64,000 nucleotides of DNA, taken from contig CAXXNF010000001.1 in assembly GCA_963666365.2 (NCBI GenBank), forward strand, positions 576,001 to 640,000. The letters are read 5' to 3'. The notes under the pieces are model-generated. The model worked only from the letters and a program-made list of their open reading frames with translations, was not told the origin of the DNA and searched no databases. This document shows, piece by piece, positions 18,227-58,689 of this stretch. The first letter of the stretch is position 1; each line of letters opens with the position of its first letter. Made by a program: the position numbers and the translations under genes. The stretch comes from Syntrophales bacterium. GTDB taxonomy: Bacteria > Desulfobacterota > Syntrophia > Syntrophales > UBA2210.

Positions 18227-19021
18227 CTACAGTTCATACTTTCCTGCAGCAGGTCTTACCGGAATACCTTCGGCCGCCAGAAACGATTTAATTTCTCCCA
18301 CCCGGTATTCATCGTAGTGTACCATGGACGCAATGAGGGCCGCATCGGCATCGGCTTTTACAAAGACATCCCGAAGATGTTCCGGTTTTCCGGCGCCGCC
18401 CGAGGCAATCACCGGGATGGAAACACCGCGCGATATGAGCGCCGTCAGCACAAGCTCGTATCCATCGGTGGTACCATCGGCATCGATCGAATTCAGGCAG
18501 ATCTCCCCGGCCCCCATATCTTCGGCCCGCTTCGCCCACTCAAGGGCATCCATCCCCATGGGAGTCCGTCCGCCATTGATCACGACCTCATACCCCGAGG
18601 GGAGATCCGGGCCCACCTCCACTCTTTTTGCGTCCATACCCAGTACGATACACTGGCTCCCGAAGGCCCGGGCGCCCAGAGTGATCAAATCGGGATTGAG
18701 CACGGCTGCCGAGTTGATGCTGATCTTTTCGGCGCCCGCCTGCAGTACGGCGCTCATGTCGTCGAGGGTCCGTAGACCGCCGCCCACGGAAAAGGGGATA
18801 AAGATGTTCCGCGCCACGGCATCGACCACCTCTATCATGATATTACGTTTCTCATAGGAAGCGGTGATATCGTAAAAGACCAGCTCATCCACGCCGTCTT
18901 CATAATATTTCCTGGCCATATTGACGGGATCGCCGATATCGACATTGCCTTCAAATCTGATCCCTTTTGTGGTTTTTCCCGCCCTGACATCGAGACAGAC
19001 AATAATGCGTTTACTAAGCAT
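18227..19021 (-). CDS. hisF: imidazole glycerol phosphate synthase cyclase subunit
   Basis: [33 protein letters not shown]. Confidence 0.95.
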
Positions 19022-19023
19022 GA

Positions 19024-19638
19024 CTAGAGCATCCCATTCCATTCGGAAAAATTTTTCAGCATACGCAGTCCGGAAGGACCGCTTTTCTCGGGGTGGAATT
19101 GTGTAACCACCACATTGCCCTTTCCGGCAATCGAGGTAAACTCTATTCCATACACAGTTGCGGCAATTCTGTCGTCTGGAAGGGAAGGGTCGGGATAGAA
19201 GGAATGGACGAAATAGAACTGCGCCCTGCGGTCGACTCCCTGCAGCAGCGGATGAGATCGCACAACCGATATGTCGTTCCATCCCATGTGGGGTATTTTA
19301 AGATTAGAATCGGGGAAGCGTCGCGCCCTTCCGGCGATAATGCCCAGGCAGGGGGTATCGCCGTCCTCCTCGCTTTGTTCAAGCACGATCTGGGCGCCCA
19401 GGCAGATCCCCAGAAAGGGCGTCTTTTCTCTGACAGCCTCATGGATTACGGCATCAAGCCCCCGGGATCGAATTGTCTCCATGGCCGAGGCCGCGGCGCC
19501 CACGCCCGGGAAAATAACCCGATCGGCCGAAAGAATATCCTCCGGCGTAGAGGTGATCCGACAGACTACCCCGAGATGCTGGAGGGCCCGTTCGACGGAC
19601 TTCAAATTTCCCGCTCCGTAATCGATGATGGCAATCAT
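19024..19638 (-). CDS. hisH: imidazole glycerol phosphate synthase glutaminase subunit
   Basis: [31 protein letters not shown]. Confidence 0.95.
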
Positions 19639-19674
19639 GGCCCTGTGTCCTTCCTTTCTTGCATCTTGAACCGT

Positions 19675-22600
19675 TCAGTGTCCCTTGCCGGCAGAAAGGC
19701 CTGTGCCGTCTGTTCCCACGATCTTGCGGGCAATCACGTCGGCACTTTCTCCCAAGAGCGTGGCAACCGCGCAGTCGCTGACAAACGCATCCTGCCAGGC
19801 CACATTGTACTCCGTCACAAAATCTTTGATTCTATTGAATTTATCGCCGATGATGTCTCTCTTTTCATCGACGGTCAGATGCTCATTGAAGTGCACATGG
19901 ATTAAGAGCACCCTTTCGATCACTCCCCCTTCACCGATGAGAGGCGCCATGACAAATGACGCTCCATCAGACTTCCCCAGTCCTGCATACATTTCACCGG
20001 TGCTGACTATCGCCCTCTTGGTTCCCATGAGGTCGCCGCTTTTTTCGATCCTCGAAGTCATGGTCAGAGAGATACCGCCCCGTTTCATGATGGTTATAGT
20101 TGAGGACTCCTGAGGCTTCCCCTCGAAATCAAGGTTTTCAATCGCATAGAGTGTGTAGCCCCTGATGCCCGTCACTGCTTTCTGAATCCTTCCGAGGGCA
20201 ATCCCGTTTCTTCCCGTAAGATTTTCAAGAGAAATCCCCATCGTGCGCATAAAATCGAAGATGATTCCCTCGGGAATTTCCTCTTTCCTGCTGGTACCGA
20301 CGGTGACCGTCTTTGCCTGATGCCGTATGGCATCGATGGGACGGACCAGTTCGTCGATGGCCCGACCGAGCGTAATATCGAGCATGTCAAGAGGAGATGA
20401 TGAAACTCGTTTTTCCTTGAAATCGTTACGGAATTCCTCCAGAGGCAGCTTTCCCGTCACGTACTTTAAAAGCAGTGCAATATCGGCGGCGATGTCGGCG
20501 CTGAGCGACGCGAAAAAACCGTTGTTTTTCCTCCCGTGAAAGAGTGAAGAAAAGTCTTCGATGGTACGGTGGAAATCAGGATCGTCAGTCTTTTCAAAAA
20601 GACTGTACCCCTTTGCCTCCATATCCTGCACCTGGCGGACCAGCGCACTTCTGAATTCACGCAGGATAGTCGCCTCCTCATTGATGCTGCAGGCGGCGTA
20701 ATACCCCCAAAGATGCCCCGCAAGCGTATTGAGTATGACCGTTGCGGGATAGTCGGAAGAGGGAACGGGAATAACCGCATCGGCAATACCGTCAAATCGT
20801 TTCTCCCCTTCTTCCGTCACCACCACCACCGACGACGCGTGGGCCTTGAAAATGGCCACATCCTTCACGATGTCGCCCATTACCGGTTCGGGATTACCCG
20901 CCGCAAGCACCAGGATAAGGGGTTCTGATGACAGATCGATGTGTTTTTTGTCTTCCACAATATCCGACGATATTGTCTTGTAACAGAGCTCGCTGAGCTT
21001 GATGCGGACCTCGTCGGAGGCCACTTTGTTCGGTCCGCTGCCCACCACGGCCCAATACCGCTTCCTTTTCACCGATTCCCAGGCCGCGTTTCTGATTGTT
21101 TCTCTTTGCGCGATCACCCGGTTCATCAACTCGGGACAACGCTCCAGACCCGCGAGCTTACGGGTGGCAAATTCATCCGTGACCGTACCGAGAGAGCGGG
21201 CAAAATAGAGCGCCAGCACATACCCGGCAACCACCTGGGAATAGAAGGCCTTTGTCGATGCCACCGACATTTCAATGTCGCGCCCGTCGCTGGTATAAAA
21301 CACCCCGCTCACCATATGCGTGATATCGGACTGTCGGCGGTTTACGATGGCTATAAGGTGGGCGCCTCTTCTCCGGGCCATGGCAACCGCTCTGTTCGTA
21401 TCGGTAGTGGTCCCCGACTGGGTAACGGCGATGACAAGCGTATCGCGAAGATCCCTTTCCAGCAGGAAACCGCTCAGTTCAGAGGCCCGCATCGCTTCAA
21501 CGCGAAGGAATCCTTCCTTCAGGTAGAGCGCCAGTGCCTCCGCAATGGCGGCGCCGGCAACAGCCGCCGTTCCCTGCCCGATCACGTACACATTTTTTAT
21601 TGTTCCCTCTTTCAGGGCATTTTTGAGCGCAGGGGTAATGATGTCATTGCCCAGGTTAAAGGAAACCGCCGACATGCCTTTGATACCCTGTTCAAATCGA
21701 TATTTTCCCCTCAGCGTTTTTTTCATGGACAGGGGCGCTTCCAGAATTTCCTTTAACAGATAATGAGGATGGTTATTGCGATCGATATCTCTCGTCGTAA
21801 TCTCGGCCTTCTGCAGAAGACGTTCATCAATCGAAAGGTGAAACCCATCATAATAACAGGCTTCGATACCTTCGGTGCGGGCTGCCCGATTATTCAGGAT
21901 GAAAATCTGACCTTTGGTAGAGGGATCGCCCGGAATTCGTTCGGTTTCTCCATCAATCTTGATAAATTCGGAGGTCAACTCCACCAGTCCGTACACCTCG
22001 GAAGAATAGATGAACTGGTCGTCGCAGAGCCCCACGTAGAGCGACTGGCCGCTTCCTCGAAGAGCCAGAAACACCCTTCCCGGCTCCAGCGTGCTCTGCA
22101 TAGCGATCGCATGGGAACCCTCAAAATCATTGACGGCATGACGAAAGGCCTCATCGAGACGCATCCCCCGAAGGAGATACCGCTCGATCTGCAGGGGGAT
22201 AATCTTGGTATCCGTGCTCACCGCACGGTCGATTTTCCCCCTCCCTTCGTCCTCAAAGGCCTTTCGCAGCGCACTATAGTTGTCGATATCGCCGTTGAGC
22301 GCCACATCGACAGTCCAGTTTCCCGATCCATAACAGGGATAGTTCCTGCAATGGGCGGACTCGCCTGCCGCAGGGGAAACTATGTGATTATTCAGGGGAT
22401 GGCAATTTTCGATAGTGATGGATCCGACGGAGGCCCATCGCGTATGGGCCATGAACATCTCCGGCCCGGAGGCCCTGGGAAGCAGGTGGTTCAATACTGC
22501 ATCCGACGATAGCGCCTTTCTGAGACACCGGGTGTTTTCACCAAGCTCGCCGGTAATGGAGGCCGTTTTATAGGTAAAGGTGATCAGGGGAGGGCGGGTG

Positions 22601-23454
22601 TGCGATGCGTCCAGTGCGAAACGAATGGAACCGTCTACAAGGTCTCCCGGCGCCGACCGTCCTTCGAATTCCTTCAAAAGACGTCCTTTCCTCAGTGCGT
22701 CAACGTATTCGTTCCAGTCATCAAAGGTATCAAATCCAAGCAGAATCTCTATCCCCGCCGAATCTCTTCCCCGCACCTCGATTCTGTCGAGCGTGTTCAG
22801 CAGCAGGTCTATTTTCCGGTACCTTCCCAGCTCTCCCTCACCTGCCCGACTGCTGCGGTTTTTCTTTCTCAGGTTTTTTACACGCGAAAAGGCGGACAGG
22901 ATGTCACGGTCCAGCGCCCACACCAGATCTTTAAGCGCAATGAATCTGCCGTTGATCCCTTCTATTTGATCCGTCGAAAAACGCTCTGCGCTCTCATCGA
23001 TCATCTTCTCCTCGCATGCAGCGAATTCTCTCAGGCTCCTGCACATATCCTCCAGTAATATCAATGATTCGGCGTCCTGTGAGAGCTTTTCAAATGTAGC
23101 GGTGCATTTGAGCTGTCGCAGCAATCGGGCAACAGTCTCCTGGACGTCCGCACCGCCCAGATAACCGTCCAGAGTGACGGATCCGTTGAGCACCTCCCCA
23201 AGCCCGCTTACAGTAATGGAAATGGCGGCAGTCGAAAGATCGGCGGCAATCGACCGGGGTTCCCGTCGCCTTTCCTGCGCAACGGTCAGAATACCGGCAA
23301 GACCACAGAACAGCGTAGCGGCCATAAGCGGAAACACCACGACGGATCGGGGAGGGACATTACGGGGATCGCGCCCCACAAAGACCTTCCTGTTTCCCCA
23401 GTCAGCCAGTAGGTGAAAACTTTTTTTCATACAGCGCACACTACGAGCAATCAT
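19675..23454 (-). CDS. glmS: extended glutamine--fructose-6-phosphate transaminase-like protein (start uncertain)
   Basis: CGLAG, RGRDSAG, AHTRWA, NGDIDNY, QSGTTTDT, VASTKAF, IKLSELCY, AKTVTVG; about 1250 aa. Confidence 0.8.
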   Translation of the reverse strand: MIARSVRCMKKSFHLLADWGNRKVFVGRDPRNVPPRSVVVFPLMAATLFCGLAGILTVAQERRREPRSIAADLSTAAISITVSGLGEVLNGSVTLDGYLGGADVQETVARLLRQLKCTATFEKLSQDAESLILLEDMCRSLREFAACEEKMIDESAERFSTDQIEGINGRFIALKDLVWALDRDILSAFSRVKNLRKKNRSSRAGEGELGRYRKIDLLLNTLDRIEVRGRDSAGIEILLGFDTFDDWNEYVDALRKGRLLKEFEGRSAPGDLVDGSIRFALDASHTRPPLITFTYKTASITGELGENTRCLRKALSSDAVLNHLLPRASGPEMFMAHTRWASVGSITIENCHPLNNHIVSPAAGESAHCRNYPCYGSGNWTVDVALNGDIDNYSALRKAFEDEGRGKIDRAVSTDTKIIPLQIERYLLRGMRLDEAFRHAVNDFEGSHAIAMQSTLEPGRVFLALRGSGQSLYVGLCDDQFIYSSEVYGLVELTSEFIKIDGETERIPGDPSTKGQIFILNNRAARTEGIEACYYDGFHLSIDERLLQKAEITTRDIDRNNHPHYLLKEILEAPLSMKKTLRGKYRFEQGIKGMSAVSFNLGNDIITPALKNALKEGTIKNVYVIGQGTAAVAGAAIAEALALYLKEGFLRVEAMRASELSGFLLERDLRDTLVIAVTQSGTTTDTNRAVAMARRRGAHLIAIVNRRQSDITHMVSGVFYTSDGRDIEMSVASTKAFYSQVVAGYVLALYFARSLGTVTDEFATRKLAGLERCPELMNRVIAQRETIRNAAWESVKRKRYWAVVGSGPNKVASDEVRIKLSELCYKTISSDIVEDKKHIDLSSEPLILVLAAGNPEPVMGDIVKDVAIFKAHASSVVVVTEEGEKRFDGIADAVIPVPSSDYPATVILNTLAGHLWGYYAACSINEEATILREFRSALVRQVQDMEAKGYSLFEKTDDPDFHRTIEDFSSLFHGRKNNGFFASLSADIAADIALLLKYVTGKLPLEEFRNDFKEKRVSSSPLDMLDITLGRAIDELVRPIDAIRHQAKTVTVGTSRKEEIPEGIIFDFMRTMGISLENLTGRNGIALGRIQKAVTGIRGYTLYAIENLDFEGKPQESSTITIMKRGGISLTMTSRIEKSGDLMGTKRAIVSTGEMYAGLGKSDGASFVMAPLIGEGGVIERVLLIHVHFNEHLTVDEKRDIIGDKFNRIKDFVTEYNVAWQDAFVSDCAVATLLGESADVIARKIVGTDGTGLSAGKGH

Positions 23455-23590
23455 AGCCCCAACACGCAACTTTTTCACTTTTCTCTCGCATGATGCAATA
23501 ACGCAGAGATAACTTCCTTTATATTCTCTTTTACACTCCATGCCGAGGATTCTCCGCACTAGATTGCATCTCTTTCTTTCTGAATGTTTT

Positions 23591-23672: not shown

Positions 23673-23704
23673 TCTATATATGCTTTTTCTCTTCAAACAT
23701 ATGA

Positions 23705-27603
<3,899 letters not shown>

Positions 27604-27604
27604 A

Positions 27605-29128
27605 TTACGCACCGGCATGTTTGATGCCAAGAATTCTCAATTCTTCCTCGTTAAGACCCACTCCTCGGAGTCGCCCTCTATTTCCTCTCAACGCCTCTAT
27701 TGCGCTGATTCCCATTGATCCCATCAATTCCTTTATCTCTTCGGCCCAGGCATGCAGCAGATTTTTCAGCGCCGCCGACGCCCTTGTCACATCGATGCGT
27801 TCTGCAAGCCCCGGCCTGTTGGTGGTGATCCCATAGGGACATTTTCCGGTAAAACAGCGCTGGCACATATTGCATCCAAGTGCGATCAGCACGGGAGTCG
27901 CCACATAGACGGCATCGGCACCGAGACAGATTGCCTTGAGCACATCTGAGGACGATTGAATGCCGCCTGACGCTACAAGACTCACCGTATCGCGTATCCC
28001 TTCATCTTTGAGCCGCGCGTCGGCAGCCGAAACGGCGAGTTCCACGGGAATACCCGTATTCTGGCGGATCTGAAGCGGCGTTGCGCCGGTACCGCCGCGA
28101 AATCCGTCAATGGCGATAATATCGGCGCCCGCCCGGGCCACACCACTTACGATCGGCGCCACATTATGAACAGCCGAAATCTTGACCGATACGGGAACCC
28201 GGTATTCAGTCGTTTCTTTTATCGCATAGATAAGCTGGCGCAGATCCTCAATGGAATAAATATCGTGATGCGGCGCCGGCGACAGTGCATCGCTTCCCAT
28301 GGGAATCATGCGCGTCTTCGAGACGGCTTCGGATACTTTTTCGCCCGGCAGATGGCCGCCGATTCCCGGTTTTGCGCCCTGCCCGATCTTGATCTCCACC
28401 GCGGCAGCGGATTTCAGATAATCCTCACTGACGCCGAACCTGCCCGAAGCGACCTGGACAATGGTGTTGGCGCCGTAGCTTCGCAACTTTTCGTGAAACC
28501 CTCCTTCTCCGGTATTCCAGAAGGTGCCTGCCGCTTTCGTGGCAATGGCCTCCGCCTCATGAACGCGCAGATTGAGCGCACCGAAACTCATTGCGCCAAA
28601 CATGATGGGCACATCAAGCTGAAGCTGGGGGCCCACTTCATCGCCATAATGGTTGGCCTTTCTTCCCAAATACCGGCGGATCTCCATCGGCTCCCGCAGG
28701 GGGTCTATGGAAGGATTGGTCACCTGGCAGGCGTCAAACATGATATGGTCGAAGTAACGCCGCTGAGGTCCCGTCGCGCCGCTTCCCACGAGCAACACGC
28801 CCCCTTCCGTTTTGGCCTGCCGCCAGATGTTGCCCACGTGCTCCGCCGTCCAGTATCTGTGAGACGTATACATGGGATTGTGCACAATGTGAATGGCCTT
28901 CTGGGGACACATTTTCGCGCATCGCTGGCAGGCATTGCAGGAAGACAAATTCGCCCAGGGACGGTAGTGCACGGCGCCGTCCTTTCCCTTTATCGGTTTC
29001 AGCGCTATTTCCCCGAATGAGCATTCCTTTGTACATTCCCTGCACCCGTTCTCATAATCGCATCGCTCGAGATCAAACTCGGGATGAAATTCCGGTATCA
29101 CATTCCAGTTGCTCTCCATCTCGCTCAT
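27605..29128 (-). CDS. glutamate synthase FMN-binding subunit (archaeal GltB2-type) with N-terminal 4Fe-4S domain
   Basis: AMSFGAL, NTGEGG, QVASGRFGV, IKIGQGAKPG.GGHLP, PAPHHDIYSIEDL, C..C..C..G.CP. Confidence 0.92.
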   Translation of the reverse strand: MSEMESNWNVIPEFHPEFDLERCDYENGCRECTKECSFGEIALKPIKGKDGAVHYRPWANLSSCNACQRCAKMCPQKAIHIVHNPMYTSHRYWTAEHVGNIWRQAKTEGGVLLVGSGATGPQRRYFDHIMFDACQVTNPSIDPLREPMEIRRYLGRKANHYGDEVGPQLQLDVPIMFGAMSFGALNLRVHEAEAIATKAAGTFWNTGEGGFHEKLRSYGANTIVQVASGRFGVSEDYLKSAAAVEIKIGQGAKPGIGGHLPGEKVSEAVSKTRMIPMGSDALSPAPHHDIYSIEDLRQLIYAIKETTEYRVPVSVKISAVHNVAPIVSGVARAGADIIAIDGFRGGTGATPLQIRQNTGIPVELAVSAADARLKDEGIRDTVSLVASGGIQSSSDVLKAICLGADAVYVATPVLIALGCNMCQRCFTGKCPYGITTNRPGLAERIDVTRASAALKNLLHAWAEEIKELMGSMGISAIEALRGNRGRLRGVGLNEEELRILGIKHAGA

Positions 29129-30192: not shown

Positions 30193-30223
30193 GATATGCA
30201 CCTCTTTTTATTACATTCGCCCG

Positions 30224-30931
30224 CTAATTAGGACTTTTCCTTCTTGCGCGCCCATCGGAACTGCAAATATCGATAAGCCACAGGAAGTTTCCATAGATCG
30301 CCCGAGAGTGAACGGCAAGATCGGCCGCCATCAGCTCGAAATAATTAAGACTTCGTTCCCGTTCTCCCGTAAGTTCAGTCCACGTGCGCATCATAACGGG
30401 TGTGACGTCGACATGAAAGGAAAGTCCGTAGGCATTGGCATACCTGAAGGCCTGAACGGGACATTCCTCAGATCCGGCCAGAAGCAGGGCACCGTGAGGC
30501 GCCTCCAGAGTTTCACCATGGACCTGAAAAAAATTCATCGCCGGGGGAAGACCATAGAAAAGTATGTCTCTCCTTCCTTCTTGTGTAAGGACAACCCGCG
30601 TCCACCCCGTACGGCGCACCTCATTCTTGTACCACGGTGCATAACAGGCCTGAGCAAGTATGCGTGCGCCCAAGGCTATTCCAAGAACGGGCCGGTTTGT
30701 GTCCAGGGCGTGGCGCAGCAGTTCCACTTCCCTTTCCATAAAGTCTTGATCACTCGCTGTTTCCGGATTACCCACCGTCACCATTGCGTCAAACTCGGAG
30801 AGGTCTCTCGGCATGGACCTTTCCGAAAAGGGGGTGACGGTCTCCAGTTCAATGCCCTTAAACCTCATAAAATCTGAAGCTAAGGACGATGCATCTGATT
30901 CACTGTGGGCAACGAAAAGAATCCTTTTCAT
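30224..30931 (-). CDS. class I glutamine amidotransferase-fold protein lacking the catalytic Cys
   Basis: PVLGIALGA where GICLG is expected, and SFHVD where QFHPE is expected. Confidence 0.75.
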   Translation of the reverse strand: MKRILFVAHSESDASSLASDFMRFKGIELETVTPFSERSMPRDLSEFDAMVTVGNPETASDQDFMEREVELLRHALDTNRPVLGIALGARILAQACYAPWYKNEVRRTGWTRVVLTQEGRRDILFYGLPPAMNFFQVHGETLEAPHGALLLAGSEECPVQAFRYANAYGLSFHVDVTPVMMRTWTELTGERERSLNYFELMAADLAVHSRAIYGNFLWLIDICSSDGRARRKSPN

Positions 30932-48909: not shown

Positions 48910-51900
48910 TTATTCCTTCTTATATATTTCCTGCAGCGATTGTACAGATAATGATCCCTTCCTCAACACGCCGATCGCGTTCACCATTGCTCCGGCGGCC
49001 GAAACAGTGGTTACGATTGGAATGGCATGATCGATGGCACTGCCTCTGATCCGTATCTCGTCTCTACGGGGTTTGGGACCGCTCGGCGTATTTATCACAA
49101 GCGCCACGGTTCTGTTTTTAATGTAATCAAGAATATTGGGCCGTCCTTCGTCGAGCTTCGGAAGCTTCGTTACCGCTATGGCGTGATCCCTGAACAGTTC
49201 CGCCGTACCCGGGGTGGCCAGGATCTCAAATCCCATATCGGCAAACTGCCTGCCTATGGGCAGAATGGCATGCTTGTCATAATCCTTGACACTGATAAAC
49301 ACACTGCCCTTGAGGGGAACATCCTGTCCTGCAGCAATTTGGCTCTTTCCGAAGGCTACCCCCAAATCGGGATCATGCCCCATCACCTCTCCCGTCGATT
49401 TCATTTCCGGACCCAGGAGGGTGTCGGCACCTGCAAATCGGCTGAAAGGAAGGACCGACTCCTTGACGGCAAAATAGCGCGGCATCGGATCGTCCTTAAT
49501 TCCCTGCTCCTTCAGCGATATGCCCGCCATCACTTTGGTGGCGACCTTTGCCAGGGGAACCCCTGTTGCCTTTGATACGAACGGCACTGTTCTCGACCCG
49601 CGCGGATTGACCTCCAGTACGTAGATTTCGTCATCCTTCACGGCGTACTGTACATTGAGAAGTCCCTGAACCCCCAGCTCAAGGGCCATGCGCCGCGTTT
49701 GATCCTTGATTGATGCGATCAGCTCCCCGCTCAGGGAGTAGGCAGGAAGCACCATGGCGCTGTCTCCCGAGTGAATGCCCGCGTGCTCTATATGCTCCAT
49801 GACGCCCCCCACGATCACATGGCAGCCGTCGCCCACGGCATCCACGTCTATCTCTATGGCGTCTTCCAGAAATTTGTCGATGAGGATCGGGTGATCGGGC
49901 GATGCCTTGAAGGCCTCCCGTACAAAACCTTCCAGATCGGCCCGGCTCCAGACGGTGACCATGGCCCGTCCTCCCAGCACATAGGAGGGACGGATAAGGA
50001 CGGGATACCCGATTCGTTCGACAATGGATTCCACTTCCTCGAAAGTGCGAGCCGTGCCGCTTTCGGGCTGCCGAATATTGAGTGTGTCCACAAGCTCCTT
50101 GAAGAGCTGCCGATCCTCGGCCCGGTCGATCGCCTGCGGAGACGTCCCCAGTATCCGCACTCCCCGCACCGCAAGCGGCACGGCGAGATTCAGCGGCGTC
50201 TGGCCGCCAAGCTGCACGATGACCCCTTCCGGCTTTTCTTTTTCGATAATATTCAGCACATCTTCCAGCGTAAGGGGCTCGAAGTAGAGCCGATCAGATA
50301 TGTCGTAATCGGTGGACACGGTTTCGGGATTGGAGTTCACCATAATCGTCTCGTATCCCAGTTCCCGCAATACCATGGAGGCATGGACACAGCAGTAATC
50401 GAACTCTATCCCCTGGCCGATTCTGTTGGGACCGCCCCCGATAATCATGATCTTCTTTTTCTCCCCTCCGCGACTTTCATCCTCCTCGGCATAAGTGGAA
50501 TAGAAGTAAGGGGTGTAGGCCTCGAATTCGGCAGCGCAGGTATCGACAAGTTTGTAGACGGGCACAATCCCCGCCTCTTTTCTCCGCCGTCTCACTTCAT
50601 CCTCCGAGGACCCGATAACTGCGCCGATCTGGCGGTCGGAAAACCCGCACTCCTTTACCCGTCTCATCAGGTCCCGGGGCACACTCTCCAGGTCCCCGCA
50701 TGCGGCCAGCTCCTGTTCCGTTTCAATAATTTCCTGAATGTTGTCCAGAAACCAGGGGTCGATCCCCGTAAGCTCGGCGACTCGCTCCAGGGGCATTCCC
50801 TTTTCGAGGGCGTGACGGACATAGAAAAGTCTCTGCGGCGTGGGACGGGAAAGCAGGGCCACACCATAACTTTCAAAATCAATGGCATCGTCGGGTAGCT
50901 TTTCGAGACCGCCAAGACCGATCTCCAGTCCGCGGAGCCCCTTCTGCAGGGCCTCCTTGAATGTTCTCCCGATGGCCATGGTCTCGCCCACCGATTTCAT
51001 CGATATGGTAAGGGTATCGTCGGCGCCGGGAAACTTTTCAAAGGCGAAACGGGGTATCTTGACCACACAGTAGTCAATGGCCGGCTCAAAGGAAGCGGGC
51101 GTCTTTTTTGTAATATCGTTTGGAATCTCGTCGAGGCTGTATCCCACCGCCAGCTTAGCGGCTATTTTCGCGATGGGAAAGCCCGTGGCCTTCGATGCCA
51201 GCGCCGACGATCGCGAGACCCGGGGATTCATCTCGATCACTGCGATGCGGCCGTTTTCGGGGTGAACAGCGAACTGAATATTCGATCCCCCCGTGGCCAC
51301 GCCTATCTTTCGGATTACGGCGGCGGAGGCGTTCCGAAGCTGCTGATATTCCCTGTCCGTCAGAGTCTGGGCCGGAGCCACCGTAATTGAATCTCCCGTG
51401 TGGACCCCCATGGGATCAAGGTTCTCGATGGAGCATATAATCACGACATTATCCTGCTGATCCCGCATTACCTCGAGTTCGTATTCTTTCCAGCCAAGGA
51501 CGGATTCCTCAATGAGGATCTCGCCGATCATGCTCTGCTCGATCCCCCGATTGGCGAATTCCTCAAACTCCTCGGCATTGTAGGCCAGCGCGCCACCGGT
51601 CCCCCCCAGGGTATAGCTCGGTCTGATGACAAGAGGAAACCCGATGTCATGGGCAATGGCCCGCGCTTCGTCCATGCTATGGGCGACTTCGCTCAGCGGC
51701 GTCGCAAGACCGATTTCGGCCATGGCGGCCTTGAAGGAATCACGATTCTCGGCGCGTTCGATCGCCGCGATGTCGGCGCCGATCATCTCGACGCCGTACC
51801 GGGCAAATACGCCTCTTTCGGCCGCCTTGACGGCCGTATTGAGCGCTGTCTGTCCTCCCAGGGTGGCGAGCACGGCATGAGGCCGCTCTTTTTCGATAAT

Positions 51901-52128
51901 CTTTTCAAGAACCTCCGTCGTGATCGGTTCGATATAGGTATGGTGCGCCATGTCGGGATCAGTCATTATAGTGGCGGGATTCGAATTCAGCAGCACTACC
52001 TCATAGCCTTCTTCGATCAGTGCCTTACAGGCCTGTGTTCCGGAATAGTCGAACTCGCAGGCCTGGCCGATGACAATGGGACCCGATCCTATTATCAATA
52101 TTTTTTTTATATCCTCGCGTTTCGGCAT
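48910..52128 (-). CDS. carB: carbamoyl-phosphate synthase large subunit
   Basis: [17 protein letters not shown], duplicated ATP-grasp halves, MGS domain. Confidence 0.98.
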
Positions 52129-52138: not shown

Positions 52139-53677
52139 CTATTCCCACTCGATAGTACCCGGCGGTTTCGAGCTGATGTCGTAGACGACCCGGTTGACTC
52201 CCTTCACTTCATTGATGATCCGTGATGATATCCTGCTTAAAAGATCGGAAGGCAGTCTCGCCCAATCCGCCGTCATACCGTCCATGCTGGTCACTATCCT
52301 CAGGGCGATTACGCGTGCATACGTCCTTTCATCACCCATGACCCCCACGCTCTTCACCGGCAGAAGCACCGCAAATGACTGCCATATCTCATCATAGTTC
52401 TCGTACCGGGACATTTCGTCCTGCACGATCAGGTCCGCCGCCTGCAGGATGGCGAGGTTGTCCCAATTCACCTCGCCTACAATGCGCACCGCCAGTCCCG
52501 GCCCCGGAAAGGGCTGCCTCTTCAGCAGCCGGTCGGGCAGGCCCAGTTCTGTTCCCACTCTCCGTACCTCGTCTTTGAAGAGTTCCCGCAGCGGTTCGAG
52601 CAGTTCAAACCCCAGTTCTGCCGGGAGCCCCCCCACGTTATGGTGGCTCTTGATCAGGACGGAAGGTCCACCGTGGGCCGATTGACTTTCAATGACATCG
52701 GGATAGAGCGTTCCCTGGGCCAGAAACCGCGCATCCTTCATCCCGCGGGTCTGTTCTCTGAACACCCTGATGAAGGTTTCACCGATGATCTTTCTCTTGC
52801 GTTCGGGGTCGAGAACTCCGGCAAGCGCATCTACAAATTCACTCGCCGCATCCACTACGGTAATATTCATCGGATAATCCCGCGTAAAAATCGAACGGAT
52901 TTCCTCAACTTCATGTGCACGAAGAAGGCCGTTGTTTACAAAAAAGGACTTCGACTGTTCTCCGACGGCCCGATTGAGAAGGGCCGCCACTACCGCGGAA
53001 TCAACACCGCCGGAAAGAGCGCAGACCACTTCCGATTTTCCGACCGAATCTCGTATGCGGGCCACCGATTCTTCGATGAATGTGCCCATGGTCCACCCGC
53101 CGCGCAACCCGGCCACAGCGTAGAGAAAATTCTTCAACACCGCCGATCCCCGCGGCGTATGGACGACCTCGGGATGGAACTGGACACCGTAGCGCTTTCT
53201 CTTCTCATCGCCCATTGCCGCTACCGCACAGGCAGGCGTGGATGCAAGAATACGGAACCCTTCCGGCGGAATCACCACATGATCGCCATGGCTCATCCAG
53301 ACATCAAGACTTCCTCCCATTCCGGCAAAGAGCTCCGCATCATTTTTCACGTTTATCCTGGCAGGGCCGTACTCTCCGCTTTTTCCCCTTTCAACCTGCC
53401 CCCCCAACAGCAACCCCAGCAGCTGCATTCCGTAACAGATGCCGAATATGGGAATGGGGAGGTGCAATATGTCCGGATCGATATCGGGATGAACCGCATC
53501 AAGGACTGATGCCGGCCCCCCCGAGAACACCAGTGCCGACGGATTCATGGCCGTCAATTCATTTTTCGAAATTGTATGTCTCACGATCTCGCAATAGACG
53601 CCCAGCTCTCGAATCCGTCTCGCGATAAGCTGTGCGTATTGTGAACCGAAATCGAATACCGCTGCCATTTCCTTCAT
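52139..53677 (-). CDS. guaA: GMP synthase (glutamine-hydrolysing)
   Basis: [39 protein letters not shown]. Confidence 0.97.
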
Positions 53678-53753
53678 TATCTTCACTCCTGGATACGTGC
53701 CTGTTCCCGTTTCGTTGCCACCGCCCGCGGAATATTGCGTTTCCGCAAAGTCA

Positions 53754-54845
53754 TCATTGTTCACTTCTCTTCTTCATAGATTCGACAAAATCACTGAAGA
53801 GCGAACGGGCATCATGGGGACCGGGTCCCGCTTCGGGATGAAACTGCACCGAGAACACCGGCAGTACTTTGTGCCTGATTCCTTCCAGAGTTCCGTCATA
53901 AAGATTCACATGGGTTACTTTGATCACGTTTTTGTCAAGCGAATGTTCATCCACACAAAATCCATGATTCTGAACGGTAATATGAATTTTCCCCGTCGCC
54001 CTATCCTTGACGGGATGATTGCTTCCGTGGTGCCCGAATTTCAATTTATAGGTCTTTCCCCCCAGTGCCAGCCCCATGAGCTGGTGTCCCAGACAGATCC
54101 CGAAAAGAGGAACGTTCCCTTCGTTGATCAGCTCCCGAACCGTTTCCACCGCATAGGTGACGGCGGCCGGATCACCGGGACCATTTGACAGGAGCACGCC
54201 GTCGGGATTCAGTCGCATGATTTCATCAGCCGTGGCCCTCGCATTGAGCACGGTGACACGGCAGCCCGCTTCCTGGAGAAGCTGCAGGATGCTGGATTTC
54301 ACGCCGAAGTCGAGTACCGCTACCAGGGGACCTCCCTGCCGCCCAAGTTCGTAGGCATCGGGCGAACTGACCTCCCTTACCAGATCACGGCCCACAAGCC
54401 CCGGCGTCTTCTTCGCCCTTTCGACAAGCACCGCCGGATCGCTTTCGCGCGTCGATATGACGGCCCGCATGGCGCCCGCCTCCCTGATGTGTCTCGTCAG
54501 CGCCCGCGTGTCGACGCCGCAGATACCGGGTACGTCATGTTCCCTCAACAAGGAGTCCAGATCGCCGGAGGATCTCCAGTTACGCGCCCTGCGGCTCAGC
54601 TCACCGATCACGAACCCTTCCAGCCAGAGAGCGCGAGACTCATTGTCCTGATCATTCACACCGTAGTTGCCGATCAGAGGGTAGGTCATGGCGACAATCT
54701 GTCCCTTGTAGGACGGATCCGTCAACACTTCCTGGTACCCCGTCATGCCGGTATTAAAGACGATCTCTCCGCTCCGTTCGCCGGCGGCGCCAAAGGATGC
54801 ACCTTCAAAATACCTTCCGTCTTCCAGCGCAAGAATTGCTTTCAT
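53754..54845 (-). CDS. carA: carbamoyl-phosphate synthase small subunit
   Basis: FNTGMTGYQE.LTDPSY, SNGPGDP, GICLGHQ, QFHPEA. Confidence 0.97.
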   Translation of the reverse strand: MKAILALEDGRYFEGASFGAAGERSGEIVFNTGMTGYQEVLTDPSYKGQIVAMTYPLIGNYGVNDQDNESRALWLEGFVIGELSRRARNWRSSGDLDSLLREHDVPGICGVDTRALTRHIREAGAMRAVISTRESDPAVLVERAKKTPGLVGRDLVREVSSPDAYELGRQGGPLVAVLDFGVKSSILQLLQEAGCRVTVLNARATADEIMRLNPDGVLLSNGPGDPAAVTYAVETVRELINEGNVPLFGICLGHQLMGLALGGKTYKLKFGHHGSNHPVKDRATGKIHITVQNHGFCVDEHSLDKNVIKVTHVNLYDGTLEGIRHKVLPVFSVQFHPEAGPGPHDARSLFSDFVESMKKRSEQ

Positions 54846-54914: not shown

Positions 54915-56345
54915 CTATGTGGCGGCTTCGCCGAACCGTTCCTTATCGAAGTTCTTTGGCGTCGCCGTGGGATAGTCCCCGGTAAAACAGGCCCTGCAAT
55001 AGGCCGATCCGTCATTGACTGTTTTCAGCATCCCCTCCACTGAAAGGTAGGCCAGCGAATCGGCTCCCAGATATCTCCTTATCTCTTCTACACTATGAGA
55101 TGCGGCAATGAGTTCTTTGCGGTTCGAAATATCGATCCCGTAGTAGCAGGGATGGATCACGGGCGGGGAGCTTACCCGCACATGCACTTCCACGGCTCCT
55201 GCATCGCGAATCAGATGGATCAGCTGTCGCAAGGTGGTGCCTCTCACTATTGAGTCTTCAACCACTACCACACGTTTCCCCTTCAGCACACCGGAAACGG
55301 TGTTGAATTTAATCTTTACATCGAGGTCCCGCTCGTGCTGGTGCGGCTCGATAAAGGTTCTTCCCACGTAGTGATTTCGTATCAGACCGATCTCAAAACG
55401 AATTTTCGCCGTTCGCGCATATCCCAGTGCTGCCGTGTTGGCGGAATCGGGAACGGCGATCACAAGATCGGCGTCGCAGGGCGCCTCTTTTGCCAGCGTT
55501 GTGCCAAGCTTCCTTCGTATTTTATCCACCTTGTCGCCAAATATGATACTGTCCGGTCTCGAAAAGTATATAAACTCGAATACACAAAAGGACCGTGACG
55601 GCGCTTCCTGAAGATGGATCGAGGAGACTCCCGATTCATCTATGGAAAGAATTTCTCCCGGCGCCACCTCCCTGATATATTGAGCATTTATAATATCGAG
55701 GGCACAGGACTCGGAGGCCACCACATACCCGCCGTTGATTTTACCGACACACAATGGTCTGAAGCCGCGGGGATCCCGCACCGCAATTACTTTTGACGGA
55801 GTAAGAAAAACAAAACTGTAGGCCCCTTCTATTTTTTCCAGAGAATCGGCAATCATTTCCTCGATGGGGCCCTTTTTGGACCGCGCAATCAAGTGGAGCA
55901 CAATTTCACTGTCCGAGGTCGTCTGAAAAATCGATCCTTCTTCTTCCATCCACCTTCGCAGTTCAGCGGCATTGACCACGTTTCCATTGTGAGCGGCCGC
56001 AATTTTCCCGCCCTTGAAACGAATAAGTATGGGTTGCGCGTTTTCAAGCCCCGAGAGACCCGTGGTCGAATACCGGTTATGACCGATAGCGGAACACCCC
56101 GTCAGCGTATCCAGCACATCGCTTCCGGCAAAGACCGCAGACACCAGCCCCATACCTTTGTGAAGTGAAAGAGTGCATCCATCGGATGCAGCGATGCCTG
56201 CGCTCTCCTGTCCCCGATGCTGCAGGGAGTAAAGCCCCAAATATGTTTTGCGCACCGCTTCTTTATCACCGAAGATGCCGAATACGGCGCAGCACTCTTT
56301 GATACCGCCGTGCGTCTCGTGACAGGCCTCGTGGTAGCAGGGCAT
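54915..56345 (-). CDS. purF: amidophosphoribosyltransferase (Fe-S type, with propeptide)
   Basis: ECCAVFG, QHRGQE, HNRYSTTG, EDSIVRGTT, C.AC. Confidence 0.96.
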   Translation of the reverse strand: MPCYHEACHETHGGIKECCAVFGIFGDKEAVRKTYLGLYSLQHRGQESAGIAASDGCTLSLHKGMGLVSAVFAGSDVLDTLTGCSAIGHNRYSTTGLSGLENAQPILIRFKGGKIAAAHNGNVVNAAELRRWMEEEGSIFQTTSDSEIVLHLIARSKKGPIEEMIADSLEKIEGAYSFVFLTPSKVIAVRDPRGFRPLCVGKINGGYVVASESCALDIINAQYIREVAPGEILSIDESGVSSIHLQEAPSRSFCVFEFIYFSRPDSIIFGDKVDKIRRKLGTTLAKEAPCDADLVIAVPDSANTAALGYARTAKIRFEIGLIRNHYVGRTFIEPHQHERDLDVKIKFNTVSGVLKGKRVVVVEDSIVRGTTLRQLIHLIRDAGAVEVHVRVSSPPVIHPCYYGIDISNRKELIAASHSVEEIRRYLGADSLAYLSVEGMLKTVNDGSAYCRACFTGDYPTATPKNFDKERFGEAAT

Positions 56346-56349
56346 CGTC

Positions 56350-57540
56350 TTATTCCTCCTCCCCGCGCCGGGTTATTGTGATACCCTGGAGGCGATTCAG
56401 TGCCGTTTCCAGACGATCCTCCGGCATGGTCAGGCTCATGCGGATGAACCCCTCGCCATGTGTTCCGAAGCCGACACCCGGCGTACACACAACACCGGTT
56501 TTTTCGAGAATATGGGCACAGAAATCCATGGATTTCCACCCTGCGGGCACAGGCGCCCATACATAAAAAGTGGCCGTCGGCATTTGGACATTCCAGCCCA
56601 TTTCGTTCAACCCGTTTACGAATCGTCTGGACCTCGATTCAAAAATGCCGCATAGTTTCTGAAGATCCTCCTCACATTCAGAAAGGGCCGTCACGGCGGC
56701 TTCCTGCACCGGCAGAAAGATTCCCGAATCCAGATTGGTTTTCACCCGGGCAAGGGCATCGATTATCTCGGCATTTCCCACGGCGAATCCCACCCTCCAG
56801 CCGGGCATGCAGAACGTTTTTGAAAGGGAATGGAATTCCACCCCCCACTCCTTCCCCCCCCGTGTTTGAAGAATGCTCGGTGATCGATTTCCGTTGTATA
56901 CAATCTCCGCATAGGCGGCATCATGACATACCGCCAATTGATGATCAGCAGCAAAGTCAATTACCTTCTGAAACATATCGAGATCGGCACAGGCCGCGGT
57001 GGGATTGGAAGGATAATTAATCCACATCAGTTTTGTATTGGACGACACAAGGAGAGTAAGTTCCTTTATATCGGGAAGAAAGCCGTTTTTCTCCCTCAAG
57101 GGAAAGAACAGCGGGACTCCGCCGGCAAGAGTGGTCCCCGCCGTATACACGGGGTATCCCGGATCGGGAAGCAGTACTTCCTGACCGGGATTGACAAGAG
57201 ACAAAAACACATGACCGATCCCCTCTTTGGAACCCAGCAGCGGCAGCACTTCCCTGTCCGGATCGAGGCTGACCCCGTAGCGCTTTTCAAACCACCGGGC
57301 GAAGACGGACCTCAGTTTCGGCAATCCGTCATAGGATGAATAATGATGGCTGCCCGCCCTTTTCACACTTTCAATGAGCGACTCAATAACCGCCTTGGGA
57401 GGACCCAGATCGGGATCACCGATCCCGAGATCAATCACATCGATGCCCCGCTTACGGGCATCGGCCTTCAATGTATCGATGCGCGCAAAAAGGTAGGGAG
57501 GTATCTGCTGAATTCTCTGTGATGCAATAGTACCCGACAT
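56350..57540 (-). CDS. dapL: LL-diaminopimelate aminotransferase (class I/II PLP)
   Basis: PYLFA, LGIGDPD, GSKEG, NYP.NPT, SLSKT..M.GWR; adjacent to dapF. Confidence 0.82.
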   Translation of the reverse strand: MSGTIASQRIQQIPPYLFARIDTLKADARKRGIDVIDLGIGDPDLGPPKAVIESLIESVKRAGSHHYSSYDGLPKLRSVFARWFEKRYGVSLDPDREVLPLLGSKEGIGHVFLSLVNPGQEVLLPDPGYPVYTAGTTLAGGVPLFFPLREKNGFLPDIKELTLLVSSNTKLMWINYPSNPTAACADLDMFQKVIDFAADHQLAVCHDAAYAEIVYNGNRSPSILQTRGGKEWGVEFHSLSKTFCMPGWRVGFAVGNAEIIDALARVKTNLDSGIFLPVQEAAVTALSECEEDLQKLCGIFESRSRRFVNGLNEMGWNVQMPTATFYVWAPVPAGWKSMDFCAHILEKTGVVCTPGVGFGTHGEGFIRMSLTMPEDRLETALNRLQGITITRRGEEE

Positions 57541-57542
57541 TT

Positions 57543-58427
57543 CTACTCCTCAGGGAGAGGCGCAAGCCCCTCGTATACCCAGGAAATTATTCCGCTGAGC
57601 CATACGTCGCTATAATAGGAATTTTGATCACGAAAGCGGACGGAAAGTTCACCACCGGCCACCTCAACCGTCAGAGATTCCGCCGTTGTGCCGCCTATCA
57701 TCGTAGCCGCAATGGCCGATGCAACAATGCCGGTGCCACAGGCCAGCGTCTCCCCCTCTACACCCCGCTCATAGGTGCGTACACGGATTCTGTCGGGTCC
57801 CACAATTTCGACAAAATCCACATTTGCGCCCCTGGGACTGAAAAGGGAGTGAAAGCGGACTTCTCTTCCGATTTCCCGTATGTCGTCATCCCGAACCGCC
57901 ATCAACGGTCCTTTTAATACGGACGCATCCTCCGCATCTTTCATGAATATGACAGCGTGAGGGACTCCGGAATCGATAAAATGGAAGGGAACTACCCTGC
58001 CTCGTTCCAGCGTAATGATACGTCCTCCCTCGCTCTTTTGAACATCGGTCAGCTTGATCGACACATTCTTTTCGTCTACAAGCGCTTCTATAATTCCGGC
58101 AAGGGTTTCGAATTTAAGGGGGGAACCGGCGATGTTCCGTTCAAGTGCAAAGGCCGCGGCGCATCGCGCTCCGTTTCCGCACATCTCCGCTTCGCTTCCG
58201 TCTGCATTAAAAATCCTCAGGTTGAAATCCGCCTGATCAGACGGTCCAAGCACAAGTATGCCGTCAGCGCCGATTGAACGGCGTCGTTCGCACAACTGAC
58301 GGGCGCATAAGTACCATGCAATATCAAACTCACCGGACATATTATCCACTACAATAAAATCGTTTCCATGACCGGACATCTTTGAAAAAGAAAGGTGCCC
58401 CGGTTCGCTGTGCCACATCATCTTCAT
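57543..58427 (-). CDS. dapF: diaminopimelate epimerase
   Basis: GHGNDF, NADGSEAEMCGNG.RC, GVPH, ERGVEGETLACGTG. Confidence 0.95.
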   Translation of the reverse strand: MKMMWHSEPGHLSFSKMSGHGNDFIVVDNMSGEFDIAWYLCARQLCERRRSIGADGILVLGPSDQADFNLRIFNADGSEAEMCGNGARCAAAFALERNIAGSPLKFETLAGIIEALVDEKNVSIKLTDVQKSEGGRIITLERGRVVPFHFIDSGVPHAVIFMKDAEDASVLKGPLMAVRDDDIREIGREVRFHSLFSPRGANVDFVEIVGPDRIRVRTYERGVEGETLACGTGIVASAIAATMIGGTTAESLTVEVAGGELSVRFRDQNSYYSDVWLSGIISWVYEGLAPLPEE

Positions 58428-58531
58428 GCTCCACCTCCTGCAGGCCGTTTTTCACGTATCGCTCTAGCAAAAACACTTCATATGCGTATATACCCGTTCC
58501 AACCTACAAGGTCAAACTTCTTGGAATATAC

Positions 58532-58547
58532 AGCAATATCAGTGCCA
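58532..58547 (-). promoter_or_regulatory. sigma-54 promoter of the dapF-dapL-purF-carA-guaA-carB operon
   Basis: TGGCAC-TGATA-TTGCT. Confidence 0.88.
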
Positions 58548-58643
58548 AAAATCCGCAGAACAAGAAAACGTCCTATCATATTGTGATCATTAACAGTATT
58601 ACAATCCAACCGTAAAAAATGACATCCAAGCACAGGTGTCACT

Positions 58644-58689
58644 ACTACGATATGGTAGGATTACGGACAATTATCTACTGAAATGTGAG
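58644..58689. promoter_or_regulatory. tandem upstream activator sites
   Basis: ACTAC-GATATG-GTAGG (58644) and TCTAC-TGAAAT-GTGAG (58674). Confidence 0.7.

Follow-up and report, generated by a model that had tools for sequence, protein, structure and literature searches.

Gene content of the locus

A 64,000-nt stretch of a Syntrophales genome (hereafter the window; G000:C1:576001-640000, where G000 denotes GenBank assembly GCA_963666365.2 and C1 its contig CAXXNF010000001.1) carries, at positions 18227 to 58689, three operons of nitrogen assimilation and glutamine-dependent biosynthesis that lie around one gene for a NifA-like sigma-54 activator. The genome comprises 4.0 Mb in two contigs and is rated 94% complete. 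Gene identities were established using NCBIfam and Pfam models, and start codons were checked by reading the DNA; in program-made lists of open reading frames (ORFs), hisF, pyrG, and amtB extend too far at the 5' end. The gene names proposed in a first-pass annotation of the window agree with these models, with the qualification that its "glmS" scores below the GlmS cut-offs. The genes are listed below by operon, named after the promoters P1 to P3 described in the next section, with bit scores followed by the model cut-off where one is given.

P1 operon
30224..30931, minus strand: stand-alone class-I glutamine amidotransferase (GATase) homolog, a pseudo-enzyme (Cys to Ala; PF00117, 41 bits)
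29125..30201, minus strand: gltB1, class-II amidotransferase part of a split glutamate synthase (GATase_2; match to the GltB large subunit)
27605..29278, minus strand: gltB2, FMN glutamate-synthase domain with an N-terminal ferredoxin (PF01645, 430 bits)
25441..27630, minus strand: gltB3-gltD fusion of GXGXG, pyridine-nucleotide oxidoreductase, and ferredoxin parts (PF01493, PF07992, Fer4)
23705..25312, minus strand: pyrG, CTP synthase, single tblastn match in the genome (863.9 bits, cut-off 308; ATG start read)
19675..23559, minus strand: giant GlmS-like protein, 1294 aa, with GATase_6, one SIS domain, and long unmatched stretches
19024..19638, minus strand: hisH, only copy (224 bits, cut-off 105)
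18227..19021, minus strand: hisF, canonical copy (344 bits, cut-off 294.6)

Activator gene
31185..32750, minus strand: GAF-AAA+(GAFTGA)-HTH_8 sigma-54 activator, 521 aa, between P1 and P2 (NCBIfam NifA, 542.1 bits, cut-off 528.85)

P2 operon
33096..34319, plus strand: amtB (482.9 bits; ATG preceded by GGAGG)
34331..34669, plus strand: glnK (PII), the only PII match of at least 50 bits

P3 operon
57543..58427, minus strand: dapF (246 bits, cut-off 114.7)
56350..57540, minus strand: dapL, LL-diaminopimelate aminotransferase (535 bits, cut-off 507)
54915..56345, minus strand: purF, canonical, with an intact glutamine site in the alignment (520.5 bits, cut-off 350)
53754..54845, minus strand: carA, only copy (500.8 bits)
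52139..53764, minus strand: guaA, full length, with glutaminase domain (755.5 bits)
48910..52128, minus strand: carB, copy 1 (1663.5 bits)
45716..48895, minus strand: GAF plus PPDK_N "dikinase-like" protein, 1059 aa, last gene of the operon
45585..45602, minus strand: terminator-like hairpin after the last gene (pattern match only)

The terminator pattern scan as a whole was not above the shuffled expectation. Genes for a PAS histidine kinase and a receiver protein are also located between the operons.

Five of the six PF00117 class-I amidotransferases in the genome (carA, guaA, pyrG, hisH, and the stand-alone GATase) fall within this single 41-kb span, for which a simple binomial gives a chance of ~7e-8; the sixth match is a 192-aa trpG/pabA-like ORF elsewhere. 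It is on this basis that the proposal that the genes are grouped by nitrogen donor holds. Among class-II type matches, gltB1, purF, and the GlmS-like gene lie in the cluster, and a second purF (purF2, see below) and two asnB-like genes lie elsewhere. The hisH-hisF pair is apart from hisA, a weak match to which occurs at C2:2.40 Mb. An AsnB-like gene (G000:C1:641151-642488), which from residue 30 onward shares 31% identity with E. coli AsnB, is situated ~1.1 kb past the window end; no palindrome or promoter of the kinds described below was found at it.

Three proteins of the cluster are unusual. The stand-alone GATase reads GIALG in place of GICLG, together with FHVD, so the nucleophile is gone, as its earlier label of pseudo-GATase implied. 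The motif is GISLG in G001, a genome of the same genus. The orthologs in G014, G017, and G021 have GICLG and FHVE and thus retain Cys, His, and Glu. The giant GlmS-like protein is the only GlmS-type match in the genome and falls under two GlmS cut-offs (233 vs 381 and 212 vs 418 bits). Its CGLAG motif is at residue 85 and RGRDSAGI at approximately residue 263, a spacing that indicates an insertion of ~170 residues in the glutaminase domain. One SIS domain was detected, and ~335 C-terminal residues have no Pfam match. More than 100 homologs of 1200-1350 aa occur in Syntrophales/Desulfobacterota metagenome bins, labelled "SIS domain-containing protein" or GlmS. The GAF module of the dikinase-like protein is 55% identical over 194 residues to that of the activator, and the protein may be a second output of the activator's sensor. 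No phospho-His or PEP-utilising domain was found in it, and its ~862-aa core family is widespread, with and without GAF. Homologs of the GlmS-like protein and of the dikinase-like protein carry public names that point to Syntrophales and other Desulfobacterota; a Pfam search at E 0.1 of the unmatched parts of both proteins returned no match.

Two gaps of 130-146 bp, before pyrG and before the GlmS-like gene, leave room for internal promoters; no recognisable one was found on scanning them. In the 146-bp gap before the GlmS-like gene (23559-23705, minus strand), an inverted repeat of 9 bp, GCGCCGAGG … CCTCGGCGT, encloses a loop ~40 nt long; it lacks a T-run.

Promoters, upstream palindromes, and the activator

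The sigma-54 promoter pattern TGGCAC-N5-TTGC occurs exactly three times in the window. In 100 shuffles of the window, the mean was 0.14 and three or more sites were reached in none (0/100); the whole genome has 19 exact sites vs ~8 predicted by composition. When one mismatch was allowed, the window had 5 sites vs 3.59 expected, which is not significant, so that only the three exact sites carry weight. Each precedes one of the operons, as had been claimed. The distance from the promoter end to the ATG is 102 bp for P1 (GATase gene, 30931), 50 bp for P2 (amtB, 33096), and 106 bp for P3 (dapF, 58427). The GG and GC elements of sigma-54 promoters, ten bases apart, are present in all three. The promoters and the palindromic sites upstream of them are as follows.

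31033..31047, minus strand: P1, sigma-54 -24/-12 promoter of the GATase-gltB-pyrG-glmS-hisHF operon, exact, TGGCACTGTTGTTGC
31148..31161, no strand assigned: P1 proximal upstream site CTACCATAGTGTAG (palindrome CCTACCATAGTGTAGG), 114 bp before the -24 element
31179..31192, no strand assigned: P1 distal site GTACCTAGCGGTAG, one mismatch, 31 bp beyond the proximal site, overlapping the activator stop codon
33032..33046, plus strand: P2, sigma-54 promoter of amtB-glnK, exact, TGGCACCTCATTTGC
32838..32851, no strand assigned: P2 upstream site CTACCACATTGTGG, one mismatch, 194 bp before P2
32938..32951, no strand assigned: P2 second site GTACTATTATGTAG, one mismatch, 94 bp before P2
58533..58547, minus strand: P3, sigma-54 promoter of the operon from dapF through dapL, purF, carA, guaA, and carB to the GAF-dikinase gene, exact, TGGCACTGATATTGC
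58645..58658, no strand assigned: P3 upstream site CTACCATATCGTAG, 111 bp before P3

Palindromes of the CTAC-N6-GTAG type thus stand 94-194 bp upstream of all three window promoters, P2 having two one-mismatch copies. The extended pattern CTACCA[CT]A..GT[AG]G occurs six times in the genome, four of them in the window. To place these sites genome-wide, sigma-54-like sites were taken as those matching at least 9/10 consensus positions, palindromes were sought 60-260 bp upstream, and a control window was placed downstream. Among the 144 sigma-54-like sites, an exact CTAC-N6-GTAG was found upstream only at P1, P3, and glnN; the control window held 0 exact and 4 one-mismatch palindromes. The glnN gene lies on the other contig and encodes a 727-aa type III glutamine synthetase (GS), the only GS in the genome. 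Its promoter, CGGCACGCTAATTGC (CGGCAC-N5-TTGC; 9/10 positions), is ~70 bp before the ATG, and the exact palindrome CTACAGTTATGTAG lies 135 bp upstream of that promoter. A genome scan with the relaxed site yTAC-N6-GTAr yielded no further regulon members. None of the 15 exact palindromes listed in the genome is near gdh, ddh, carB2/purF2, the GuaA half, or hisF2, the genes taken up in the next section. A fourth palindrome-like site in the window, CTACCATAATGTGG (34772-34785, plus strand), is 3' of glnK and has no evident target gene; a weak sigma-54-like sequence, TGGCAAGCTTATGGC (34857-34871, plus strand), 85 bp past it, is directed into the 3' end of a receiver-domain gene that runs convergently (34916-35323, minus strand).

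The genome encodes RpoN (40% identity over 469 residues to E. coli RpoN by tblastn, E 1e-108, C2:821340-822746) and ~30 homologs of sigma-54 activators by the same method. By Pfam, the activator of the locus comprises GAF, Sigma54_activat, and HTH_8 domains. It aligns over its full length to the NifA structure PDB 9qq6_C (E 5.8e-116), and its GAFTGA residues are invariant in 10 orthologs. The nearest solved relatives of its GAF module are the GAF domains of NifA and Nlh (4g3k, 4g3w, 8jrc). The N-terminus is this GAF domain, with no Pfam match to Response_reg, unlike an NtrC-type regulator. The upstream sites of NifA proper are of the type TGT-N10-ACA. None occurs within 300 bp upstream of P1, P2, or P3, and no nifH in the genome exceeds its cut-off (best match 36.8 bits vs 394); the activator has the architecture of NifA and is not a nif regulator. 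A search for related loci using the activator alignment drew generic motifs only (ESELFGHE, WPGNVREL), with a cluster gene nearby in 2/80 loci, both glnA.

We searched 40 related genomes, and counts out of 41 below include G000. An activator match covering the GAF region, full-length or truncated by a contig end, was present in 30/41 genomes; the remaining 11 had matches to the AAA+ domain only, or none. Activators from the family share 75-90% identity with that of G000, and those from other families of the order 46-55%. The arrangement of the locus is likewise shared. The same three blocks are found in G001, and blocks are shared by G014, G017, and G021. In the last, a 37-kb stretch runs from hisF to the GATase gene, then through a glnA behind the promoter, the activator, and amtB-glnK to GAF-dikinase-carB-guaA-carA…purF. 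G019 has one co-directional 28-kb array (activator-glnA-gltB1-gltB2-gltB3D-pyrG-GlmS-like-hisH-hisF-dapF-dapL-purF-carA-guaA-carB-GAF-dikinase). At greater distance, gltB2, gltB1, hisH, hisF, carA, carB, purF, and the activator are contiguous on one strand in G036 (activator 55% identical), and in G030 and G038 (47-48%) the activator adjoins the GAF-dikinase gene, with carA-guaA-carB(-purF) 8-15 kb away. Linkage to the activator, for which a check of synteny in relatives had been suggested, thus holds across the order down to 47-55% activator identity. A glnA of type I (443-456 aa) heads the P1 operon in G001, G014, G017, G021, and G019, and G000 has lost glnA from the operon head.

The regulatory sites are conserved as well. 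When the DNA downstream of the activator gene, which includes P1, was aligned for 12 genomes of the family, CTAC, GTA, TGGCA, and TGC formed invariant blocks against a mean column identity of 52%. The palindrome is exact in 10/12 (G001 and G023 end in GTAA) and the promoter pattern in 11/12 (G007 has TATGC), and the two are spaced 101-115 bp apart in all nine genomes containing both. Conservation of the P1 distal site is less telling because that site sits in coding sequence. Upstream of dapF, too, a promoter is paired with an exact palindrome in G001 (109 bp) and G019 (122 bp), and in G036 TTACATATTTGTAG lies between divergent sigma-54-like sites. The strict promoter and palindrome patterns gave no pair in G030 and G038. 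Based on the common palindrome, the fourth member glnN, and the arrangement conserved in relatives, the three promoters belong to one regulon, as first proposed, and we consider it highly likely that this sigma-54 regulon is real.

Glutaminase-less paralogs elsewhere in the genome

The first-pass annotation had further proposed that second copies and ammonia-using alternatives of the clustered genes exist elsewhere. We searched for second copies and ammonia-type ALTERNATIVES using tblastn of every cluster protein against the whole genome and annotated the matches. The expectation was borne out for six steps. The genome has gdh (glutamate dehydrogenase, GDH) and ddh (meso-diaminopimelate dehydrogenase; C1:1463238-1464200, 448.2 bits vs cut-off 180.6), as well as a carB without carA partner, a second purF, a C-terminal half of GuaA, and a second hisF without hisH. 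It was not borne out for pyrG, the GlmS-type gene, carA, hisH, dapF, amtB, and glnK, of which no second copy was found in the genome, as was also the case for gltB1 and gltB2; nor was a carbamate kinase found, and the only match to NagB was weak (28%).

The second carB, carB2, encodes 1069 aa, is 52% identical to carB (1510 bits), lies downstream of purC and dnaJ, and adjoins purF2 (C1:1007971-1009395). PurF2, with 474 aa, is 35-38% identical to PurF and scores 315.7 bits vs a cut-off of 350. In an alignment of eight PurF2 and five PurF1 sequences, PurF2 retains the N-terminal Cys and the four Fe-S cysteines, and in 8/8 sequences an eight-residue stretch with RYSTTG is deleted and AFSGN replaces AHNGN. 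In E. coli PurF, we take the positions matching the RYSTTG stretch and AHNGN to be those of glutamine binding and the oxyanion hole. A PurF-like neighbor of carB2 in G030 (L133:1565-3007) is more degenerate than other PurF2 and has no N-terminal Cys (MGGFFGV). The GuaA half (321 aa; 282 bits vs 338.8) has no glutaminase domain and retains SGGVDS and the C-terminal dimerisation domain. HisF2 (253 aa, 44% identical; 275 bits vs 294.6) retains the Asp positions of the catalytic type and also matches models of the WbuZ/AglZ type. A CN-hydrolase/nitrilase-like gene directly follows hisF2 (L003:5009-6818; G000:C2:1453009-1454818). The CN-hydrolase fold is that of the glutaminase in glutamine-dependent NAD synthetase, and this neighbor may be an alternative ammonia supplier for HisF2.

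These paralogs are widespread. A carB2-type gene (at least 76% identical) occurs in 34/41 genomes, nearly always adjoining purF2, and the pairing is maintained at 76-88% identity across the order. At 1e-60, carA was not found in 8/41 genomes (G003, G010, G011, G012, G016, G018, G024, and G027, the last rated 100% complete), all of which have the carB2-type; a recheck at 1e-5 in five of the eight gave trpG- or guaA-like matches only. Similarly, only the purF2-type was found in G010, G012, G016, G018, G022, and G024, only the GuaA half in G010, G012, G016, G027, and G028, and only the hisF2-type, with no hisH, in G004, G010, G012, G016, and G028. GS genes are present in 41/41 genomes. In G010, G012, and G016, which represent two genera and are 93-97% complete, none of the activator, carA, carB1, purF1, full-length guaA, hisH, and hisF1 was found and the glutaminase-less set is present, which would imply that this set suffices there.

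Proposed regulation by nitrogen donor and competing explanations

Taken together, these results are, on balance, best accounted for by a conserved sigma-54 regulon under a single activator that rises at low nitrogen and bears on the choice of nitrogen donor. The activator is predicted to bind the CTAC-N6-GTAG palindromes ~95-195 bp upstream of four -24/-12 promoters and would thereby drive four units: amtB-glnK; the split glutamate synthase (GOGAT) with pyrG, the giant GlmS-like enzyme, and hisHF, a unit headed by glnA in relatives; dapF-dapL-purF-carA-guaA-carB with the GAF-tagged dikinase-like protein; and, on the other contig, the type III GS. The GAF domain, or GlnK acting on it, would read nitrogen status, for example via 2-oxoglutarate. 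We infer this signal, as the most likely one, because the core targets (ammonium transporter, PII, GS, GOGAT) are the classic low-nitrogen set; as judged from these canonical members, the regulon is probably raised by nitrogen limitation. When ammonium is scarce, the rise of the regulon would bring more glutamine production together with more glutamine-spending enzymes. At high ammonium, the cell would lean on GDH, Ddh, CarB2, PurF2, the GuaA half, and HisF2, all outside the regulon, and save the ATP cost of glutamine synthetase. Such a switch of donor between ammonia and glutamine is a tentative proposal. It cannot be absolute, and a graded response with basal expression would be required, because pyrG, the GlmS-like gene, carA, hisH, and dapF are single-copy.

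Several observations weigh against this account. The single-copy genes just named are of essential type and stand behind P1 or P3. Scans for sigma-70-like promoters gave no excess (16 vs 14.4 expected and 14 vs 13.0), and none of the 18 sequencing runs listed with the window sequence is on record as RNA. There is no carbamate kinase among the matches in the genome, and the NagB match could be another member of the fold. That CarB2, PurF2, the GuaA half, and HisF2 work with ammonia is inferred only from missing or altered glutaminase parts, and PurF2 keeps the nucleophile Cys. Among relatives, ddh is present in 16/41 and gdh in 33/41, and an activator orthologue was not found in G015 and G029 despite their purF-carA-guaA-carB. 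Finally, pyrG was not found at E 1e-10 in G010, G012, G016, and G018 (92-97% complete), nor were gltB2 and the GlmS-like gene; we know of no substitute for pyrG. One unbinned contig would remove all cluster genes because they are clustered. Either the contig of the cluster is systematically unbinned in these four genomes, or these are lineages without CTP synthase.

Two further findings bear on the absence of the cluster. A glnA lies mid-contig in G010, G012 (188-kb contig), and G016, with no cluster gene within ~10 kb and no promoter/palindrome pair. Ddh and DapF complement each other in their distribution: ddh without dapF occurs in G012 and G016, and dapF without ddh in G010, G018, and G024. 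Both findings argue against a pure artefact. The flanks of the G019 cluster match G004 and G022 DNA at 83-90%, and G012 and G016 only in short pieces of 65-70%; on G016 contig C80, right- and left-flank pieces are adjacent, but their order is not the one expected from a simple deletion. In G024, pyrG is split across contigs.

The strongest competing explanation is that the cluster is a housekeeping supra-operon: the main glutamine-using set would always be expressed at a high level from sigma-54 promoters, the activator would only trim it, and the paralogs would serve other ends, such as pathway-specific carbamoyl-phosphate synthesis or sugar amidation. The single-copy, essential-type genes favor it, as does the wide use of sigma-54 implied by the ~30 activator homologs. 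The lack of excess sigma-70-like promoters is as compatible with substantial constitutive expression from sigma-54 promoters as with a switch. The scores of HisF2, PurF2, and the GuaA half, each below its cut-off, and the matches of HisF2 to WbuZ/AglZ-type models also allow other functions for these proteins. However, the co-regulated core of amtB-glnK, GS, and GOGAT is the classic nitrogen-limitation set. Moreover, carB2 has no carA partner in this genome and is the sole carB type in the eight relatives in which no carA was found, there is no second hisH for HisF2, and the conserved carB2-purF2 pairing argues for a core role. We therefore regard the housekeeping explanation as unlikely, if still a serious contender.

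A second alternative accepts the regulon and changes the signal, which would be energy charge, redox state, or a glutamine surplus, with the GAF domain sensing something other than 2-oxoglutarate or PII. In its favor are the presence of the same module on the dikinase-like protein, which hints at an ATP- or phosphoryl-linked circuit, and the genes for the PAS histidine kinase and the receiver protein between the operons. Against this, the members include amtB-glnK and both GS types, for which every study has shown induction by nitrogen shortage, and the solved structures nearest to the GAF module are those of NifA and Nlh. A different signal therefore seems improbable. A strict binary switch, in which the whole glutamine-routed set is off at abundant ammonium and each step is taken over by an ammonia-using alternative, was the form of the idea first put forward. 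Alternatives do exist for GOGAT (gdh), DapL/DapF (ddh), CarAB (carB2), PurF (purF2), GuaA (the C-terminal half), and HisHF (hisF2). Yet steps with single-copy essential genes cannot be off: pyrG and the GlmS-type gene have no second copy in the genome, a carbamate kinase was not found, and no match to NagB is clear. In addition, the two asnB-like genes and the trpG/pabA-like gene lie outside the regulon and have no site, and ddh was not found in 25/41 genomes that otherwise share the regulon. This part of the first-pass annotation lacks support, and we consider an all-or-none switch slightly less probable still than a different signal. Chance motif matches with neutral clustering and no co-regulation, for which the unenriched one-mismatch pattern might speak, are already contradicted by the conservation of promoter and palindrome as invariant blocks in 12 genomes, and the absence of three exact sites from all shuffles, the linkage kept at 47-55% activator identity, and the binomial chance of the PF00117 clustering leave this explanation with almost no probability.

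Returning to the regulon with a graded choice of donor, a broader form of it would hold for the order. Two parallel donor systems may exist: a core, glutaminase-less ammonia set (CarB2, PurF2, the GuaA half, HisF2, GDH, and in some genera Ddh), and an accessory glutamine module under sigma-54/GAF control (GS, GOGAT, CarAB, PurF, GuaA, HisHF, PyrG, the GlmS-like protein, and DapL/DapF) that is raised only when ammonium is scarce. We offer this generalization as speculative. If true, genes would be organized and regulated by nitrogen donor, not by pathway, sparing ATP in energy-starved, probably syntrophic cells, and the lineages of G010, G012, and G016 may have dropped the glutamine module entirely.

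The regulon resembles known systems in part. In the enterobacterial NtrC (GlnG) regulon, sigma-54 promoters with upstream enhancers drive glnA and amtB-glnK under nitrogen limitation. The promoters and enhancers described here are alike in kind and in these targets; the sensor differs, being a phospho-receiver in NtrC and a GAF domain here, and NtrC regulons scavenge nitrogen sources and do not include pyrG, purF, guaA, carAB, hisHF, glmS, or dapF. Nitrogen regulons normally govern uptake and assimilation, not downstream glutamine-spending enzymes. With NifA and Aquifex Nlh1/Nlh2, the activator shares its domain order, its score above the NifA model cut-off (542 vs 529), the full-length match to 9qq6_C, and the GAF matches to 4g3k, 4g3w, and 8jrc. 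It differs from NifA in the lack of nifH and of TGT-N10-ACA sites and in its targets, which are assimilation and biosynthesis, not nitrogenase.

The closest likeness is to the DVU1949 nitrogen regulon predicted for Desulfovibrio vulgaris and further Desulfovibrionales, which excerpts of a computational reconstruction (Kazakov et al. 2015, PMC4641369) describe as a single-component activator with nine target operons labelled nitrogen metabolism and transport. The 16-bp sites given there have the core TTAC-N6-GTAA (for example, GTTACATTTTTGTAAT), and such predicted sites lie before the sigma-54 promoter of a type III GS. Both systems, as far as these excerpts go, combine a single-component sigma-54 activator with nitrogen targets, those of DVU1949 including the DVU1231-1233 operon and the type III GS DVU1258; an ammonium-transport/PII operon and a type III GS behind sigma-54 promoters are targets in both. 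The TTAC-N6-GTAA core has the same length and symmetry as CTAC-N6-GTAG and differs in the outer base of each half-site, with TTACATATTTGTAG of G036 being intermediate; the activators themselves are likened by description and sites. The target table of PMC4641369 contains no amidotransferase, dap, pur, pyr, or his genes, and the excerpts place the activator gene in a transcript with DVU1952 and ior genes, whereas here it is embedded in the target cluster. PurF2 resembles crenarchaeal PurF', a second PurF-like protein with a disabled glutaminase site that, in excerpts of Brown et al. 2011 (PMC3261824), is proposed, without test, as an ammonia-dependent PRPP aminotransferase. As described in those excerpts, PurF' has no N-terminal Cys, whereas PurF2 keeps the Cys, has no RYSTTG stretch or HNGN, and is encoded next to a CarA-less carB2.

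A literature search, which covered few subscription journals, returned no description of amidotransferase bundling or of a CarA-less bacterial CarB, and no relevant passage was found in excerpts of a 2025 sigma-54 survey (PMC12316311). The membership of amidotransferases in the regulon and the parallel ammonia-type gene set thus appear to be undescribed. One activator and one type of site appear to link GS/GOGAT and ammonium uptake to the synthesis of CTP, GMP, purines, carbamoyl-phosphate, histidine, amino sugars, and lysine and the cell wall. Together with the glutaminase-less paralogs, the regulon provides a testable model of how energy-limited anaerobes may choose between free ammonia, which is cheap and needed at high concentration, and glutamine, which costs ATP. 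Widespread, uncharacterised candidates for assay are the CarA-less CarB with its remodelled PurF, the stand-alone GMP-synthase half, the giant GlmS-like protein, and the GAF-tagged dikinase-like protein.

Elsewhere in the window, an Rfam scan detected no riboswitch or leader. Its sole match was PYLIS_3, the pyrrolysine insertion element of mttB (61.4 bits; 61405-61504, plus strand), inside ORF 60385-61887. This ORF is of the MttB family and uninterrupted under table 11, and a second MttB-family ORF begins at 62818. At the other end of the window, the regions 435-9531 and 10005-11600 contain Mu-like prophage genes and their neighbors. The prophage genes include those for a Mu transposase C-terminal domain, GemA, Gam, a cell-wall hydrolase, and an AAA_22 protein that is possibly the transposition ATPase; the adjoining genes are one of the S24 peptidase/repressor-like type and one with an AbiJ N-terminal domain.

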